From Candidatus Latescibacterota bacterium (lineage in GTDB: Bacteria; Latescibacterota; UBA2968), in contig OZ242010.1 of assembly GCA_965204745.1 (NCBI GenBank), positions 5,184,001 through 5,248,000 on the forward strand: a stretch of DNA of 64,000 bases. Reading direction: 5' to 3'. Made by a program: the position numbers and the translations under genes. The notes under the pieces are model-generated. The model saw only the letters and a program-made list of their open reading frames with translations, was not told the origin of the DNA and did no database searches. This document shows, piece by piece, positions 14,948 to 56,874 of the stretch. How positions within the stretch are numbered: the first letter of the stretch is position 1; every line of letters starts with the position of its first letter.

Positions 14948-16245
14948 AAGATACTCTCTTAAAAGGTCAAGGGGTTTTCGGGGTGATTCGATAGAATTTT
15001 TCGCCCTCAAAATCTTGGTCATGGCGCAACATGCCCCAGATCGAATGGAGCAACTTTCGCATCACCGCAACGATAGCCTGCAAAGGTTTCTTGCCGCGGG
15101 CGATGAGTTGGTCATAGAAGGCTTTGACATGGCCTTCGTGTCTGATGGCCACCCAGGCAGGCATATAGAGGGCATGGCGGAGGTACTTATTCCCGGTTTT
15201 CGAGATGCGTCTTTGTGGATTGGCGGTTCCGGATTGTTTGGGTTTGGGATCCAGGCCTGCATGTGCGACCCACTGGGGCGGTTGCATCTCCTCTGGCAAA
15301 AGGGTCAACTCGGCCAAGAGCCGCAAGGCACTCGTTTGCGCGATGCCAGGCGTCGAGCAGAGGCGTTGGTAGGCACGCTTGAGGGGCTCATCGTGCAAAA
15401 CGAGATCGAGGGCTTGGCTTTCCAAGTATGCAATCCGGCGTTTGAAGTGTCGAATATTCACCTGAATATCGCGTGCGATGAGACGTGTGCTGCGGATGTG
15501 GTAGCTCTGCGCGTGGTTGCGGCTCTGTTCGCGGATGATCTCCTGCTTGAGTTGGTCAATGCGTCTGGTGAGGGCTTGCAGTTGAAGCCGTTGCTCGCTC
15601 GGCGCTTGCCAAGGCACAAAAGGCATGCGCTCGGCATAGTCGAGGATCAACAACGCATCCTTCGCATCCGTCTTCGCCCGTTGCATGCAGGCTTGGGCGT
15701 ACTTGCTCATCGCTTTGGGATTGACGACCATGACCTTTGTGTGGCGATGCCGATGCAAGGCCAAGGCCACCCCCAAACTGTAAAGCCCGGTCGCTTCGAG
15801 GCACACAGAGACCATGTGCCCGCCCTTCGTGAGCCACTTCAGCAACCGCTTATGCGCTTGGGGATCATTGGCAAAGGTCGCTTGCATGACAGCTTGTCCG
15901 GGTCTGGACAGGGCAACGGACAACGTGCGGGCACTGACATCAATGCCGGCAAAAGCGGGGTGAGATTTCGACATGGGGGCCTCCTGTGATGAGGGGGTTG
16001 TAAGGGATCTGGTGCGCGCTCGGGGTCGCGTCCCGACCATTGACGCCAAGTCTACCGGTCTTGTATATGCAGCCTCAAGGGGCTTAGATACTCTTCGGCA
16101 TAGACCCGGCGGTCGGGGGGCCTATCTTACCTACAAGGTCATCGCCTTCAAGAGGGGCCGGCCTTCCCCGAGCCGGGCATCAAGATGGCTTATCTCGATA
16201 CGAGGGCGCAACTCCTAATTAACCCTTACTTCCAAGATAGCAAGA
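14948..16245 (-). mobile_element. IS110-family insertion sequence, copy 1 (1298 bp including both TCTT cores)
   Basis: Matches the other two copies apart from one extra base at the left junction; no terminal IRs; ~270 bp non-coding leader. Confidence 0.95.
14967..15974 (-). CDS. IS110 DEDD recombinase/transposase
   Basis: GIDVS, LEATG, KTDAKDA, AGLDP..QSG, GNKYLRHALY; AGGAGG RBS. Confidence 0.95.
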   Translation of the reverse strand: MSKSHPAFAGIDVSARTLSVALSRPGQAVMQATFANDPQAHKRLLKWLTKGGHMVSVCLEATGLYSLGVALALHRHRHTKVMVVNPKAMSKYAQACMQRAKTDAKDALLILDYAERMPFVPWQAPSEQRLQLQALTRRIDQLKQEIIREQSRNHAQSYHIRSTRLIARDIQVNIRHFKRRIAYLESQALDLVLHDEPLKRAYQRLCSTPGIAQTSALRLLAELTLLPEEMQPPQWVAHAGLDPKPKQSGTANPQRRISKTGNKYLRHALYMPAWVAIRHEGHVKAFYDQLIARGKKPLQAIVAVMRKLLHSIWGMLRHDQDFEGEKFYRITPKTP

Positions 16246-16318: not shown

Positions 16319-16900
16319 TCATGGCATCCTCGCCATCTGGGTTTCGAGTCGCTGGGCAAGGGCGTCGAAATCCTCGGGGCACTTCTGTCGGATCGCGCTT
16401 ATTCGGCGTGCGGCTTCGCGTCCGAAGGTATCGCGGCCGCCGCCAAGGCGATTGGCGATGCCGCGTTGTTGTGCCAGAACCTCAAAGTAATTTTCCTTGA
16501 CATGAATCTCTGCGCGAACGTCCGCCCAACGCCAATTATGAGACAAGTTCAAGCCCGCGAGAACCCAAGTCTCGATCTCTTCCCAAGCGTTCTCAGCCAA
16601 GAAAACCCGTTGACCTCCGAACCGCGCCTCGAGCTGGTTGAGCCTTTGTCGTCTCTGTGTGTTGCCATCGCGGTCGACGCATAAGATGAAAATGTCTATC
16701 ATGCCTCGATATTGTTCTACGATTTCTGCCATGCGTCTCGATTTTAGGGCTTCCCCAATGCCGCCGAGCAATGGGTCCTGACAAATTCGAATATGTGCGG
16801 AAGGTCTCGGTCTCTTGAAGGTTCTCATAAGCCGAGAGAAAAGCGGCTTGAGAATGTACTGGTCTTTGCGAAAGTCTTCCGGGATGATGAGGATGTTCAT
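16319..16900 (-). CDS. Hypothetical partner of AAA_21 ATPase (TOPRIM/DUF4276-like)
   Basis: N-terminal IIPED, CVDRDG, EEIETWVLA; coupled to the ATPase by an ATGA overlap. Confidence 0.65.
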   Translation of the reverse strand: MNILIIPEDFRKDQYILKPLFSRLMRTFKRPRPSAHIRICQDPLLGGIGEALKSRRMAEIVEQYRGMIDIFILCVDRDGNTQRRQRLNQLEARFGGQRVFLAENAWEEIETWVLAGLNLSHNWRWADVRAEIHVKENYFEVLAQQRGIANRLGGGRDTFGREAARRISAIRQKCPEDFDALAQRLETQMARMP

Positions 16901-18129
16901 TCTCTGATCCTCTCATCTTGAGCACGCGCCAAGTTGAGCATATCTTCCAGCCACCCACTCGTGTGGAGTCGTCCCAAGCCTTGAGATCGCCGCAACTTCT
17001 GTGCGTTGGGCAGACTAGCTACAGATCGGATGACAGCGTCGTCAGTGTCCTCAAGTCGGCAGATGACGGAGGTGTTTTCGAATGTCCTATCATCGATAAG
17101 GGCCAGCATGTCGGGCGAGTGGGTGGTGGTAATCACTTGGATGCCGTTCTGCGCGGTCTGTTTTTCGATCAGTTCGAGGAGTAGCCACAGGCGGTTGGGA
17201 TGAATGCCATTGTCGAGTTCCTCAAAAAAATAAATGCCCGATGGGTTCGTGCCGAGCAACGCGGTCAGCATAGCCAGAAAGCGCAGCGTGCCATCCGACG
17301 CGCTGTAAGCCGATACTTTTCTGCCATTCGCTTCGCAAATCATGAGATGGACCCGTCCACTGGGATCGCGCAAAAACTCAAAACCCGCCACATCCATCTG
17401 CGTGAGTTCCGCCAGCCACTCAGCGAGAATCTCCTGCTGCCGCGGATCAATACAGATTTCCGCCAGTACTGTAGGCAAGTTCTCGCCGCCGTCGCCCAAG
17501 ACAGTCGCATCGGGGAAAGCAGGCACCCGCATCTGTTCCGGCGACAATTCCAGAAAGCGGATGTTGGCGAGAACGCCAATTACTTGCGCGGCGAGATTCC
17601 CATAGTCTTGGTCGTGCCAAACCCCGAGGGGGTAACTTTGAATCTGTGTCAGTGCCGGTTGGTCTGGGCGCACCGCGATTATCTGATTAGTCTCTCCGAG
17701 GCGAAGGCATATAGCTTTTCTATGAGCAAGGCTATCTGGCTGGGTCGTGTAGATCGGCCTCCCATCGGCGTTTAGTTCTTCTCGCGCAACCCTGAATGTA
17801 CCCAGCCTGGTTTTATCGCGTCTGACTTTGATGGCGTAATTAAAGCGGTGATTCTCGACCCGAAATTTGACGCAAAGGGAGAGTGACGGTTGCCCAAAGC
17901 GGATGACTTCATCGGTAGCACCGCGGATCGGTTTCCAACCAGCCTCGTGCTTCCCGCCAAAAATCTCGGCTAAAGTGTAGCCACGACCAATGCCCTGTAA
18001 GAAGCGGAACGCGTCGCGGATGTTGCTCTTGCCGCTGGCGTTCTCTCCCACGAGTACGGTGAACGGACCTACGCGAAGCGTTTCGTCTGCGAAGTTCTTG
18101 AAATTGACGAGTCGGAGCGAAGTGATCAT
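16897..18129 (-). CDS. AAA_21/ABC-type ATPase
   Basis: GENASGKS Walker A, SDGTLR signature, FFEELDNG Walker B, TTHS. Confidence 0.9.
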   Translation of the reverse strand: MITSLRLVNFKNFADETLRVGPFTVLVGENASGKSNIRDAFRFLQGIGRGYTLAEIFGGKHEAGWKPIRGATDEVIRFGQPSLSLCVKFRVENHRFNYAIKVRRDKTRLGTFRVAREELNADGRPIYTTQPDSLAHRKAICLRLGETNQIIAVRPDQPALTQIQSYPLGVWHDQDYGNLAAQVIGVLANIRFLELSPEQMRVPAFPDATVLGDGGENLPTVLAEICIDPRQQEILAEWLAELTQMDVAGFEFLRDPSGRVHLMICEANGRKVSAYSASDGTLRFLAMLTALLGTNPSGIYFFEELDNGIHPNRLWLLLELIEKQTAQNGIQVITTTHSPDMLALIDDRTFENTSVICRLEDTDDAVIRSVASLPNAQKLRRSQGLGRLHTSGWLEDMLNLARAQDERIRE

Positions 18130-39450: not shown

Positions 39451-39654
39451 ATGCGGTTGAGTGGCCCTCTCGCCTCTCGCCTCTCCCGTCTCCCCTGCGG
39501 AGCGGTTGTGCGGTTGTGCGGCTGGTGGCCGTCTCCCCTCTTGCCTCTCCCGTCTCCCCTGCGGAGCGGTTGTGCGGCGGGGCGGACTGACCACTGACCA
39601 CTGACCACTGACCACTGGTTTTAGGCGGTTGAGTGGCAGGGTGGCCGTCTCCCC
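39451..39654. repeat. Mosaic of GTGGCC-(CCTCTCS)n, GCGGTTGT and CTGACCA repeats, including an empty IS110 target
   Basis: Tandem heptamers; CCCCTCTTGCCT at 39535-39546. Confidence 0.8.
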
Positions 39655-39679
39655 TCTTGTATCTTGGAAGTAAGGGTTA

Positions 39680-39900
39680 ATTAGGAGTTGCGCCCTCGTA
39701 TCGAGATAAGCCATCTTGATGCCCGGCTCGGGGAAGGCCGGCCCCTCTTGAAGGCGATGACCTTGTAGGTAAGATAGGCCCCCCGACCGCCGGGTCTATG
39801 CCGAAGAGTATCTAAGCCCCTTGAGGCTGCATATACAAGACCGGTAGACTTGGCGTCAATGGTCGGGACGCGACCCCGAGCGCGCACCAGATCCCTTACA
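39680..39900 (+). ncRNA. Predicted IS110 bridge RNA (ends approximate; also present in copies 1 and 3)
   Basis: CCCCTCTT (39742-49) and AGGTAAGA (39767-74) match the target; AGAGTATCT (39805-13) and ATACAAGA (39833-40) match the donor circle junction. Confidence 0.8.
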
Positions 39901-39924
39901 ACCCCCTCATCACAGGAGGCCCCC

Positions 39925-40932
39925 ATGTCGAAATCTCACCCCGCTTTTGCCGGCATTGATGTCAGTGCCCGCACGTTGTCCGTTGCCCTGTCCAGACCCG
40001 GACAAGCTGTCATGCAAGCGACCTTTGCCAATGATCCCCAAGCGCATAAGCGGTTGCTGAAGTGGCTCACGAAGGGCGGGCACATGGTCTCTGTGTGCCT
40101 CGAAGCGACCGGGCTTTACAGTTTGGGGGTGGCCTTGGCCTTGCATCGGCATCGCCACACAAAGGTCATGGTCGTCAATCCCAAAGCGATGAGCAAGTAC
40201 GCCCAAGCCTGCATGCAACGGGCGAAGACGGATGCGAAGGATGCGTTGTTGATCCTCGACTATGCCGAGCGCATGCCTTTTGTGCCTTGGCAAGCGCCGA
40301 GCGAGCAACGGCTTCAACTGCAAGCCCTCACCAGACGCATTGACCAACTCAAGCAGGAGATCATCCGCGAACAGAGCCGCAACCACGCGCAGAGCTACCA
40401 CATCCGCAGCACACGTCTCATCGCACGCGATATTCAGGTGAATATTCGACACTTCAAACGCCGGATTGCATACTTGGAAAGCCAAGCCCTCGATCTCGTT
40501 TTGCACGATGAGCCCCTCAAGCGTGCCTACCAACGCCTCTGCTCGACGCCTGGCATCGCGCAAACGAGTGCCTTGCGGCTCTTGGCCGAGTTGACCCTTT
40601 TGCCAGAGGAGATGCAACCGCCCCAGTGGGTCGCACATGCAGGCCTGGATCCCAAACCCAAACAATCCGGAACCGCCAATCCACAAAGACGCATCTCGAA
40701 AACCGGGAATAAGTACCTCCGCCATGCCCTCTATATGCCTGCCTGGGTGGCCATCAGACACGAAGGCCATGTCAAAGCCTTCTATGACCAACTCATCGCC
40801 CGCGGCAAGAAACCTTTGCAGGCTATCGTTGCGGTGATGCGAAAGTTGCTCCATTCGATCTGGGGCATGTTGCGCCATGACCAAGATTTTGAGGGCGAAA
40901 AATTCTATCGAATCACCCCGAAAACCCCTTGA
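39925..40932 (+). CDS. IS110 DEDD recombinase/transposase
   Basis: Same protein as 14967-15974. Confidence 0.95.
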   Translation: MSKSHPAFAGIDVSARTLSVALSRPGQAVMQATFANDPQAHKRLLKWLTKGGHMVSVCLEATGLYSLGVALALHRHRHTKVMVVNPKAMSKYAQACMQRAKTDAKDALLILDYAERMPFVPWQAPSEQRLQLQALTRRIDQLKQEIIREQSRNHAQSYHIRSTRLIARDIQVNIRHFKRRIAYLESQALDLVLHDEPLKRAYQRLCSTPGIAQTSALRLLAELTLLPEEMQPPQWVAHAGLDPKPKQSGTANPQRRISKTGNKYLRHALYMPAWVAIRHEGHVKAFYDQLIARGKKPLQAIVAVMRKLLHSIWGMLRHDQDFEGEKFYRITPKTP

Positions 40933-41052
40933 CCTTTTAAGAGAGTATCTTGCCTCTTGCTTCTCCCCTCTCCCCTGTGGTTGTGCGGCGGGGCGGCGGC
41001 GAAGCCTACCATTTTTATCTTGATTTCGTTCAAATAATCGCTAACTTGGGGT

Positions 41053-41255
41053 TGTCAACCATCGAGCAGAGCCCGCATGTCGGGTAGCCTGCTGAATAGA
41101 ATAGCCTACTCAACTGGCGGCGGGTCGCTCCCGGCACCAAGGCGAATAAGTAGGACCCTTCCCGCATCTCTCTGCGTGATGGTTGACACTGCCCGGCCCC
41201 TATGCTGGCGCAGCGTCAACCTGCCTTCAATCTGTCAACCATCCACGTCAACACG
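41053..41255 (+). ncRNA. Candidate structured leader or ncRNA closed by TGTCAACCATC/GATGGTTGACA
   Basis: Outer stem plus GCAGAG/CTCTGC, CCCG/CGGG and CCTACT/AGTAGG; downstream GTCAAC repeats; promoter-like TTGATT...TAACTT upstream. Confidence 0.4.
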
Positions 41256-55577: not shown

Positions 55578-56874
55578 TCTTGTATCTTGGAAGTAAGGGT
55601 TAATTAGGAGTTGCGCCCTCGTATCGAGATAAGCCATCTTGATGCCCGGCTCGGGGAAGGCCGGCCCCTCTTGAAGGCGATGACCTTGTAGGTAAGATAG
55701 GCCCCCCGACCGCCGGGTCTATGCCGAAGAGTATCTAAGCCCCTTGAGGCTGCATATACAAGACCGGTAGACTTGGCGTCAATGGTCGGGACGCGACCCC
55801 GAGCGCGCACCAGATCCCTTACAACCCCCTCATCACAGGAGGCCCCCATGTCGAAATCTCACCCCGCTTTTGCCGGCATTGATGTCAGTGCCCGCACGTT
55901 GTCCGTTGCCCTGTCCAGACCCGGACAAGCTGTCATGCAAGCGACCTTTGCCAATGATCCCCAAGCGCATAAGCGGTTGCTGAAGTGGCTCACGAAGGGC
56001 GGGCACATGGTCTCTGTGTGCCTCGAAGCGACCGGGCTTTACAGTTTGGGGGTGGCCTTGGCCTTGCATCGGCATCGCCACACAAAGGTCATGGTCGTCA
56101 ATCCCAAAGCGATGAGCAAGTACGCCCAAGCCTGCATGCAACGGGCGAAGACGGATGCGAAGGATGCGTTGTTGATCCTCGACTATGCCGAGCGCATGCC
56201 TTTTGTGCCTTGGCAAGCGCCGAGCGAGCAACGGCTTCAACTGCAAGCCCTCACCAGACGCATTGACCAACTCAAGCAGGAGATCATCCGCGAACAGAGC
56301 CGCAACCACGCGCAGAGCTACCACATCCGCAGCACACGTCTCATCGCACGCGATATTCAGGTGAATATTCGACACTTCAAACGCCGGATTGCATACTTGG
56401 AAAGCCAAGCCCTCGATCTCGTTTTGCACGATGAGCCCCTCAAGCGTGCCTACCAACGCCTCTGCTCGACGCCTGGCATCGCGCAAACGAGTGCCTTGCG
56501 GCTCTTGGCCGAGTTGACCCTTTTGCCAGAGGAGATGCAACCGCCCCAGTGGGTCGCACATGCAGGCCTGGATCCCAAACCCAAACAATCCGGAACCGCC
56601 AATCCACAAAGACGCATCTCGAAAACCGGGAATAAGTACCTCCGCCATGCCCTCTATATGCCTGCCTGGGTGGCCATCAGACACGAAGGCCATGTCAAAG
56701 CCTTCTATGACCAACTCATCGCCCGCGGCAAGAAACCTTTGCAGGCTATCGTTGCGGTGATGCGAAAGTTGCTCCATTCGATCTGGGGCATGTTGCGCCA
56801 TGACCAAGATTTTGAGGGCGAAAAATTCTATCGAATCACCCCGAAAACCCCTTGACCTTTTAAGAGAGTATCTT
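55578..56874 (+). mobile_element. IS110-family insertion sequence, copy 3 (1297 bp including cores)
   Basis: Junctions CCCC-TCTT-GTATC and GAGTA-TCTT-ACCT. Confidence 0.95.
55848..56855 (+). CDS. IS110 DEDD recombinase/transposase
   Basis: Same protein as the other copies. Confidence 0.95.
   Translation: MSKSHPAFAGIDVSARTLSVALSRPGQAVMQATFANDPQAHKRLLKWLTKGGHMVSVCLEATGLYSLGVALALHRHRHTKVMVVNPKAMSKYAQACMQRAKTDAKDALLILDYAERMPFVPWQAPSEQRLQLQALTRRIDQLKQEIIREQSRNHAQSYHIRSTRLIARDIQVNIRHFKRRIAYLESQALDLVLHDEPLKRAYQRLCSTPGIAQTSALRLLAELTLLPEEMQPPQWVAHAGLDPKPKQSGTANPQRRISKTGNKYLRHALYMPAWVAIRHEGHVKAFYDQLIARGKKPLQAIVAVMRKLLHSIWGMLRHDQDFEGEKFYRITPKTP

Follow-up and report, generated by a model that had tools for sequence, protein, structure and literature searches.

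An IS110-group insertion sequence with a predicted bridge RNA directed at host heptamer arrays in a Latescibacterota genome

How does an insertion sequence come to lie, copy after copy, at the joints of a short host repeat? The question is raised by a 64,000-nucleotide stretch of a Candidatus Latescibacterota bacterium genome (GenBank assembly GCA_965204745.1, contig OZ242010.1, positions 5,184,001 to 5,248,000 of the forward strand; hereafter the window), which contains three full-length copies of an IS110-group element. The genome (G000) is a single contig of 5.48 Mb with 56.5% G+C, in which BLAST found 77 pieces matching the element, 52 of them full length. The element is 1293 bp long, and its full copies make up 1.23% of the genome; 30 of the 52 are identical over 1297 nt, and eight more are identical to one another and 96.1% identical to the query. 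Very probably it is an autonomous insertion sequence of the IS110 group whose bridge RNA, encoded by the element itself, selects the target. The left end (267 nt) is predicted to encode a conserved RNA of about 155–210 nt with two stem-loops, each carrying a large internal loop. The first loop, with CCCCUCU(U) and AGGUAAG, would be sense and antisense to the 12-bp target CCCCT-CT-TACCT; the second, with AGAGUAUCU and AUACAAG, would be sense and antisense to the joined ends of the element, AGAGTAT-CT-TGTAT.

The boundaries were set by alignment of the three window copies and of the 52 genomic copies. Copy A occupies 39655–40951 on the plus strand when the TCTT at both junctions is included, and its element-specific DNA spans 39658–40950 (1293 bp). 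Copy B (14948–16245, minus strand) carries an additional C following base 5 of its left end (TCTTGCTATC), which hits both the right-donor site and the −10-like hexamer described below, and copy C (55578–56874, plus strand) lies in a perfect ACCT site. All three copies have the left junction CCCC-TCTT-GTATCTTGG, in which GTAT comes after TCTT, and the right junction GAGAGTA-TCTT followed by GCCT (copies A and B) or ACCT (copy C). The target CCCC-TCTT-(A/G)CCT and the donor junction GAGAGTA-TCTT-GTAT claimed in the initial annotation are thus present at the junctions of all three copies. The layout is that of the IS110 group, with a long non-coding left end (39658–39924, 267 nt) and a short right end (40933–40950, 18 nt). 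The ends are not inverted repeats, and the two junctions have only TCTT in common, with no target duplication beyond the core.

The same annotation had taken TCTT as the core, which needs correction to the dinucleotide CT within it. The position of the core inside TCTT is ambiguous in G000. In the orthologous loci L007–L024 the left junction reads ..CCT-CT-TGTATC (18/18) and the right junction GAGAGTAT-CT-CCC.. (16/18); both junctions share CT and have different bases after it at all 18 loci, and the five loci of the sister genome G091 behave in the same way (5/5). Because the L007–L024 junctions share only CT, the core can be fixed as CT, with which subfamily v5 of G000 (see below) is consistent. 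On this basis the core of copy A lies at 39656–39657 in the left junction and at 40949–40950 in the right junction.

The gene between the two ends (39925–40932, plus strand) encodes a recombinase of 335 residues, as first annotated, with both Pfam domains of IS110 transposases: an N-terminal RuvC-like DEDD domain (PF01548, E = 1.2e-24, residues 9–154) and a C-terminal transposase domain (PF02371, E = 4.8e-20, residues 203–287) with the catalytic Ser-Gly. It was aligned with the IS621 and ISCro4 chains of known structure, which it matches over nearly its full length (ISCro4, 9t56, E = 7.6e-40; IS621, 8wt6, E = 5.8e-36, 127.6 bits); this match is enough to fix its fold. The composite active site of IS621 is described in PMC11208158, in the part consulted, as D11, E60, D102, D105 and S241-G242; the aligned residues here are D12, E60, D103, D106 and S248-G249, the last pair lying within KQSGT and aligning with the ESG of IS621. 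The 335-codon reading frame is kept in 51 of the 52 full copies and ends at codon 262 in the other. A ribosome-binding site, AGGAGG, can be read at 39914–39919 (plus strand) and is kept in close orthologues. The protein cluster to which the recombinase belongs has 91 members, none of them named among the 40 examined.

Four guide words had been reported in the leader, and all four are found there in the stated order: CCCCTCTT (39742–39749), AGGTAAGA (39767–39774), AGAGTATCT (39805–39813) and ATACAAGA (39833–39840). Each occurs once and on the plus strand only. Among 20,000 shuffles of the 262-nt leader, each single word was found in 12–79 shuffles, and two or more words were found together in none. 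In IS621 the left guides read as the top strand, and so pair with the bottom strand, while the right guides pair with the top strand and the core is present in each (PMC11208160, sections consulted). The strand senses are the same here, left sense and right antisense. The left target guide CCCCTCTT reads as the top strand over target positions 3–10, with the core CT at 39747–39748, and the right target guide AGGTAAG (39767–39773) is the reverse complement of CT-TACCT, positions 8–14; CCCCTCT(T) and AGGTAAG together correspond to CCCCT-CT-TACCT. A left target guide of 9 nt, as originally proposed, is too long, since it specifies only about 7–8 nt. For the donor the agreement is complete: the left donor guide AGAGTATCT is identical to the last 9 nt of the right end including the core (40942–40950, 9/9), and the right donor guide ATACAAG (39833–39839) is the reverse complement of the left-end CT-TGTAT (7/7).

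The right guides AGGTAAGA and ATACAAGA of the initial annotation hold over 7 nt; the A at the 3′ end of each is probably part of a handshake position. Under the handshake rule, as given in the part of PMC11208158 consulted, the two nucleotides 3′ of each right guide pair with positions 7 and 6 of the other DNA. In the target loop the candidate for such a handshake guide is AT at 39774–39775 (plus strand), which is complementary to positions 7 and 6 of the donor (..GTA-T|CT): as AU it would pair with T7 and A6 of the donor. In the donor loop AC (39840–39841) stands at the same position, and its A would pair with T7 of the target. Both DNAs have T at position 7, so cognate and non-cognate handshake pairing are indistinguishable there.

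To what structure do these words belong? An alignment of 20 orthologous leaders, with the consensus cleaned of guide-to-guide pairs, gave a comparative structure of five helices and 34 pairs in which 94.5% of cells are paired and 14 pairs show compensatory changes. None of 500 shuffles matched the cells paired, the two-sided changes or the covariation score, and slid controls reached at most 49.5%. The predicted structured core of the bridge RNA spans 39726–39881 on the plus strand, as do all of its parts, and is closed by a helix of 39726–39730 with 39877–39881. The target-binding stem-loop (39731–39784) has an outer stem of GGG/CCC and GGCC/GGCC with an AA bulge, an inner stem AAGG/CCTT (39751–39754 with 39761–39764) and, between them, an internal loop with 11 nt on the 5′ side (39740–39750) and 12 nt on the 3′ side (39765–39776). 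The donor-binding stem-loop (39799–39846) has an outer stem TGCCG/CGGTA, an inner stem AGCC/GGCT (39815–39818 with 39825–39828) and an internal loop of 11 nt (39804–39814) and 13 nt (39829–39841). In this comparative structure all four guides lie inside the two internal loops.

One further pairing was seen in the alignment. Columns 93–94 and 116–117 (39745–39746 and 39768–39769 in the window) set the left target guide against the right one; they are pairable in 38 of 40 cells, ten of which are changed on both sides, also in lineages that are not CT-rich (CG/CG, CA/UG). Their covariation score was reached in none of 500 shuffles, and slid controls gave at most 47.5%. In the orthologue of genome G128 the clasp bases of the right guide mismatch the real target yet pair with the left guide. 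The columns may represent a guide-to-guide clasp that limits the programmable targets, or a constraint for a dinucleotide repeated 6–7 bp apart. No mention of such a clasp was found in the literature sections examined.

If the RNA chooses the site, the sites should follow the guides. The 52 copies offer a census within one genome, and with RNA-U:DNA-G wobble allowed 40 of them sit at a site that matches their own guide over positions 3–14 (23 perfectly). Within the main-guide family (n = 45) the left junction is TCCCCTCTT in 39 copies, ACCCCTCTT in two and TTACCTCTT in four, and the right junction is TCTTACCT in 24, TCTTGCCT in 17, TCTCCCGT in two, and TCTTGCCC and TCTTACTT in one each. Occupancy of the sites falls with guide mismatch. 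The perfect site CCCCTCTTACCT is filled 20 times and empty five times (80% filled), the one-wobble site CCCCTCTTGCCT 17 and 65 times (21%), and the two-mismatch site TACCTCTTACCT (TACC..ACCT) four and 83 times (5%); the site with a wobble and two mismatches, TACCTCTTGCCT (TACC..GCCT), is filled in none of 53 cases. The first of these steps has p = 1.2e-7 and the second p = 1.9e-3 (Fisher tests), and the two mismatches in the TACC sites lie far from the core. A random 12-mer of G000 composition is expected 0.77 times. The suggestion that a G:U wobble explains the GCCT sites fits this pattern (17 of 82 wobble sites filled against 20 of 25 perfect sites). The four main-family copies at TACC..ACCT match their guide fully in the right half and miss it at two positions of the left half, and they recall the half-match insertions reported for IS621 (10.64898/2026.08.31.748434, in the part consulted). 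An unoccupied wobble-type target is present in the window itself: CCCCTCTTGCCT at 39535–39546 (plus strand), 109 nt upstream of copy A in a repeated host module, is the sole match in the window, and 100 shuffles gave none.

The leaders of the 52 copies fall into ten variants, and where the target loop differs the site differs too. In a subfamily of five copies (the 89% subfamily) C/TGCCTCTT replaces CCCCTCTT and AAGTAAGA replaces AGGTAAGA, which changes CCCC to C/TGCC and AGG to AAG (right guide AAGTAAG); across the subfamilies, the left-guide variants CGCC, TGCC or TCCC match their own sites. Sites of the form xGCC are used by three of these five copies and by none of the 45 of the main family (p = 5e-4), and ACTT sites by four of five against one of 45 (p = 1e-4). 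Subfamily v5, a single copy, has the guides TCCCTCTC and, as reverse complement, TCTCACCT, and sits at exactly that site; its junctions, TCTT on the left and TCTC on the right, are those predicted by a crossover just after CT. A mosaic copy at G000:602779 combines guides of the 89% type with a v5-type site, with three mismatches, which could be explained by mobilization in trans by the v5 RNA or by gene conversion after insertion. From their sequences, point mutations in the target loop appear to have given rise to co-resident subfamilies that use different array joints.

The 89% subfamily also lends some colour to a different account of the copies, namely that the element is a fossil which spread by duplication of the host modules that carry it and not by transposition, as these copies lie in a recurring host module (...GGTCTCGCC|TCTT|ACTTCTTGCCTCTTACTTGGGGATAGGGCT). 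Their elements are 94–99.8% alike, and their 400-nt flanks share either module stretches of 18–213 nt (82–100%) or nothing. With flanks alike only over short dispersed modules, the copies are better read as independent insertions, and 47 unoccupied copies of that module's target, (C/T)GCCTCTTACTT, are present in G000. Since in addition the 30 copies identical over 1297 nt have different flanks and 51 of 52 reading frames are intact, we regard the fossil account as highly improbable, and transposition to RNA-chosen sites remains the preferred reading.

The relation between guide and site can be followed beyond G000. Matches to the recombinase with E of 1e-40 or better were found in 12 of 168 genomes of the phylum and, within the genus, only in G000, G082 and G091 (three of 21). 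The close relatives, with 76–84% protein identity, comprise 25 loci in two chromosome-level metagenome-derived assemblies labelled Latescibacteria or Latescibacterota, and one Gemmatimonadota contig has a 48% protein match; metagenome-assembled Latescibacterota genomes are the closest relatives that have a name. At L007–L024 the loop words are CTCGCCTCT and, as reverse complement, TCTCCC; positions 5–9 match the site at all 18 loci and all nine positions at three. The loci of G082 lie in unique non-array DNA and have the loops ATCC(T/C)CCTT and TCTTTTCT; the right flank CTTTTCT is present at three of the four loci, out of six, for which a right end was found. In six distant lineages (52–64% identity) the sites are unrelated and not CT-rich, and the loops follow them. 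The right guide CTAACGT faces the flank CTAACGT in all three copies of G041, CTCACTT agrees in G152 and CTCACGC in G151, and in G128 the left guide CAAGCATCT stands against GAAGCATCT.

When all guides were scored against all flanks, the own site was the row maximum in ten of ten lineages, with own-site scores of 10–15 against an off-diagonal mean of 7.3 and maximum of 12; as the lineages are related and some single-copy boundaries are inferred, this is a test of consistency and not a probability. The boundaries in question are those of G101, G097, G152 and G151, which were set by conserved end words instead of by copy comparison, and the scoring tables omit L032, the right ends of L002, L005 and L042, and some donor loops. 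Guide and target therefore covary both inside G000 and across ten lineages. The loci of G041 (L041, L051 and L056; 54% identical) show a separate peculiarity: the left target guide ends in AT and AT stands at two of the three left junctions, while CT is found in the right guide and at each of the three right junctions. One loop therefore appears to contain guides for two different cores.

These comparisons bear on a sceptical view of the guide words, that they are relics of target or donor sequence which reached the left end through, for instance, nested insertions long ago, and that the protein alone picks the site. Short matches are easier to come by when the target is of low complexity and CT-rich, and the fold predicted for the free RNA leaves half of each guide unpaired. 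Against this view, the words keep fixed places in a conserved structure and change in step with unrelated targets that are not CT-rich in orthologues at 52–64% protein identity. The left and right guides are moreover opposite in strand sense, as expected under the IS621 model, and no two of the words came together in the shuffles. We judge the relic view to have very little chance of being correct. The initial annotation had invoked the bridge-RNA logic of IS621, and each sequence-level feature of that logic which could be checked (the loops, the strand senses and the guide–target covariation) was found.

Several observations nevertheless count against target choice by a bridge RNA. Positions 1 and 2 of a 9-nt left target guide mismatch the target, and the second base of the donor-loop handshake, C, is unpaired with C6 of the target. 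Beyond any wobble, 12 of the 52 copies mismatch their own guide (at one position in five copies, two in four and three in three); the copies with three are the mosaic and two with TCTCCCGT on the right, a flank that would be the perfect site less one 7-nt unit. The minimum-energy fold of the single sequence pairs UCUUG with UAAGA between the target guides and GUAU with AUAC between the donor guides, and the open-loop form is 13.9 kcal/mol costlier. The proposed check by folding is answered by the comparative structure, the single-sequence thermodynamic fold being ambiguous when taken by itself. An Rfam 15 scan of 39500–41100 with E up to 10 returned no bridge-RNA family, the best match being a microRNA model (E = 0.98). 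The 24 sequencing runs listed for the stretch, all available as contigs, include none recorded as RNA. No circle junction or empty-site allele was present in contigs of four of them, X1, X3, X5 and X6, which cover the element at 95% likeness or more and leave its flanks partly uncovered. Some pairing between guides is unavoidable because the left and right guides read opposite strands of one core, and it is longer here because T stands on both sides of the core and the donor repeats GTAT; by analogy with IS621, the loops would be opened on the protein.

By the same analogy, the element would leave as a circle whose junction joins TTGACC in the right end to TATCTT in the left end as a promoter. 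The −35-like hexamer TTGACC (40929–40934, plus strand) overlaps the stop codon of the recombinase gene, and the −10-like hexamer TATCTT lies at 39660–39665 (plus strand); at the predicted junction, ...GAGAGTATCT|TGTATCTT..., they are separated by an 18-nt spacer. TTGACC or TTGAAC is found at the same distance from the core (within 1 nt) in the orthologues examined, TTGTATCTT is invariant or nearly so across the 20 orthologous leaders, and the whole donor junction, AAGAGAGTATCT with TTGTATCTT, is conserved in orthologues. For IS621 the circle has been described to rebuild a sigma-70 promoter and donors to be more conserved than targets (PMC11208160, sections consulted), and the conserved hexamers and donor junction fit both statements. 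The two hexamers would act as a promoter only once the ends are joined in the circle; a search of 39550–41050 returned neither a terminator-like site nor a good internal promoter. The bridge RNA would then hold the circle junction in one loop and the chromosomal target in the other while a recombinase tetramer swaps strands at the CT core, an exchange that would leave no target duplication. The target is the point where two units of a host heptamer array meet, which provides many sites in a fixed orientation.

The arrays themselves are a conspicuous feature of the genome. G000 has 545 arrays of at least three units C[CG]TCT[CT][ACG], the commonest units being CCTCTTG, CCTCTCA, CCTCTCC and CCTCTTA. 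The proposal of GTGGCC-(CCTCTyS)n as the target stands as regards the heptamer arrays; the units are those just given and often end in A, and only seven of the 52 copies have GTGGCC in the 60 nt to their left. With the strict unit pattern, 46 copies adjoin at least one further heptamer unit and 41 at least two. A pattern of four units occurs 1280 times in G000 and 1231 times in G091, against 0–20 times in the other 19 genomes of the genus (four times in G082) and 0–9 times for a reversed-pattern control, which amounts to an excess of at least 60-fold over those 19 genomes; examples are window 39461–39560 and G000:C1:333145–333326. On the opposite strand the array units resemble tandem Shine–Dalgarno words (..AGAGG).

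Are the arrays older than the element? Identity of the AnmK protein to that of G000 is 90% in G091, 81% in G082, 78% in G087 and 73–75% in the rest, and by this one marker G000 and G091 appear to be sister species. The array before the cytochrome c assembly gene, in which copy C sits, is present at the same place in G091, unoccupied and abutting the ATG, and is absent in G082, G087 and G083. The shared position indicates that the arrays are inherited host features which expanded in the G000/G091 lineage, and the element of each species is tuned to a joint between common units. Since arrays abound only in these two sister genomes, their association with array-directed elements counts as one event, and it cannot order which came first.

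The opposite direction of cause would have the element itself expand or maintain the arrays through guide-directed recombination in shifted registers. The targets are tandem and 7 bp apart, so shifted registers, whether between target and target or between junction and target, would add or drop units. The arrays are abundant only where the elements are aimed at them, in G000 and G091, and G082 with its four uses non-array sites; the donor junction is itself a tandem heptamer (GTATCTT twice); and the right flank of two copies is consistent with the loss of one 7-nt unit. If this were so, an insertion sequence would be building its own landing pads, with recombination lengthening, shortening or seeding arrays. 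Against it, the correlation reduces to a single evolutionary event, given that G000 and G091 are sisters by AnmK (90% against at most 81%); 17 of the 21 genus genomes hold at least one array, most of them without the element; the array before the cytochrome c assembly gene exists unoccupied in G091; and no heptamers of the element ends were found inside arrays in a search that was not systematic. We consider it quite unlikely that the element made the arrays in this way, and unlikely that element and arrays amplify each other with part of the array excess being the element's own work. The arrays are treated here as host sequence that an RNA-guided element exploits.

Other short tandem repeats surround the copies, and G000 is rich in several that are unrelated to one another. 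A host module of GGTGGCC, heptamers and CCTGCGGAGCGGTTGTGCGG occurs three times in 200 nt (39461–39660), copy A lying in the third, and the module is followed by four GACCACT heptamers (39588–39615). Further runs of GTGGTCA/GTAGTCA heptamers lie upstream of copy C. An attempt to place the arrays in intergenic DNA by stop-to-stop frames of at least 150 codons (65% of array bases against 91.5% genome-wide) was set aside, as the method is too crude at 56.5% G+C, and nothing was drawn from it.

Gene context was examined for the three window copies against Pfam-supported neighbours. Copy A lies between an AAA ATPase gene and a reading frame with a weak UDG match; copy B between an RraA-like gene and an unassigned 193-residue reading frame that is followed by an AAA_21 ATPase gene; and copy C between AnmK and the cytochrome c assembly gene, the element ending 20 nt before the ATG (56895). 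The description of the sites as intergenic safe sites thus holds for all three copies as regards intergenic position and is qualified by the closeness of copy C to a gene start; that the sites are `safe' is plausible. The insertion of copy C must part the cytochrome c assembly gene from whatever promoter stood upstream. The AAA_21/AbiEii-like ATPase gene beside copy B (16897–18129, minus strand, E = 4e-33) and the adjoining 193-residue reading frame may together form a gene pair of the defence type.

A head-to-tail pair of copies from two subfamilies (96.1% and 100%) is found beyond the window, at G000:C1:1121590–1124183. All that separates the two is the TCTT closing the upstream copy, ACC and the TCTT opening the downstream one, which indicates that the second insertion used the next unit of the same array. 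Contigs of the runs X6, X7, X9, X10 and X14, labelled as sponge metagenomes, carry the element at 95% likeness or more; on one X6 contig its left end is joined to a different array flank, so the element occupies other sites in related populations.

No literature was found on this orthologue or on an IS110 element aimed at a tandem heptamer, although the supplementary catalogues of Durrant 2024 and Perry 2025 may list the orthologue. The matches listed in the literature search included no tandem simple-repeat target for IS110, and literature on heptanucleotide tandem repeats and insertion sequences yielded none on insertion-sequence targeting. Since the mechanism is established, the value of the element lies in the example. 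Its 52 copies in one closed genome, with three or four guide variants and all occupied and empty sites counted, amount to a natural specificity experiment, in which subfamilies have shifted to new sites through single-base changes of the target loop. It also gives a picture of an IS110 element that lives on a simple repeat, tandem and non-palindromic, in a lineage not yet cultured. The recombinase and a compact RNA predicted to read a 12-bp target make a further candidate orthologue for programmable recombination, and nothing suggests that it outperforms known ones.

Among known systems, the IS1111 group (seekRNA) shares the recombinase superfamily and RNA-guided site choice. Its elements have the guide RNA downstream of the gene and subterminal inverted repeats. 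Membership of that group was rejected, as just 18 nt remain after the stop codon, each of the four guides precedes the gene and the ends do not form inverted repeats. ISCro4/IS622 of Citrobacter rodentium (10.1101/2025.05.14.653916; PDB entry 9t56) is the best match among solved structures (E = 7.6e-40) and has the same architecture; it is enterobacterial and has been engineered for human cells, and the text examined of that study, in which 72 orthologues were screened, makes no mention of Latescibacter. ISPpu9 and ISPpu10 of Pseudomonas putida (PMC12288879; 10.64898/2026.03.19.712850, sections consulted) are likewise IS110 elements that multiply via a dispersed host repeat. Their repeats are extragenic palindromes or conserved intergenic sequence, whereas the repeat here is a non-palindromic tandem heptamer, so that one array can offer several sites in a single orientation.

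The closest comparison is with IS621 of Escherichia coli (PMC11208160 and PMC11208158, sections consulted). Both have a two-domain DEDD/Ser recombinase with the five catalytic positions aligned; a long left end in front of the gene and a right end that is very short; an RNA, here a predicted one, with target-binding and donor-binding internal loops, in which left guides are sense and right guides antisense with the CT core in each; and donor ends far more conserved than targets. The −35 element of IS621 in the right end and its −10 element in the left have candidate counterparts here in the two hexamers. The two are only distantly related in sequence (127.6 bits, E = 5.8e-36). The target loop here has 11 + 12 nt against 13 + 15 nt in IS621 (from residue ranges); the right target guide pairs over 7 nt (positions 8–14) against four; the left target guide effectively covers positions 3–10; and the right donor guide is contiguous over 7 nt where that of IS621 is split. 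The natural target of the present element is a joint in a tandem heptamer array. That of IS621 is a REP-type repeat. Taken together, these differences are ones of degree, and the element is a new example of a mechanism that is already known.

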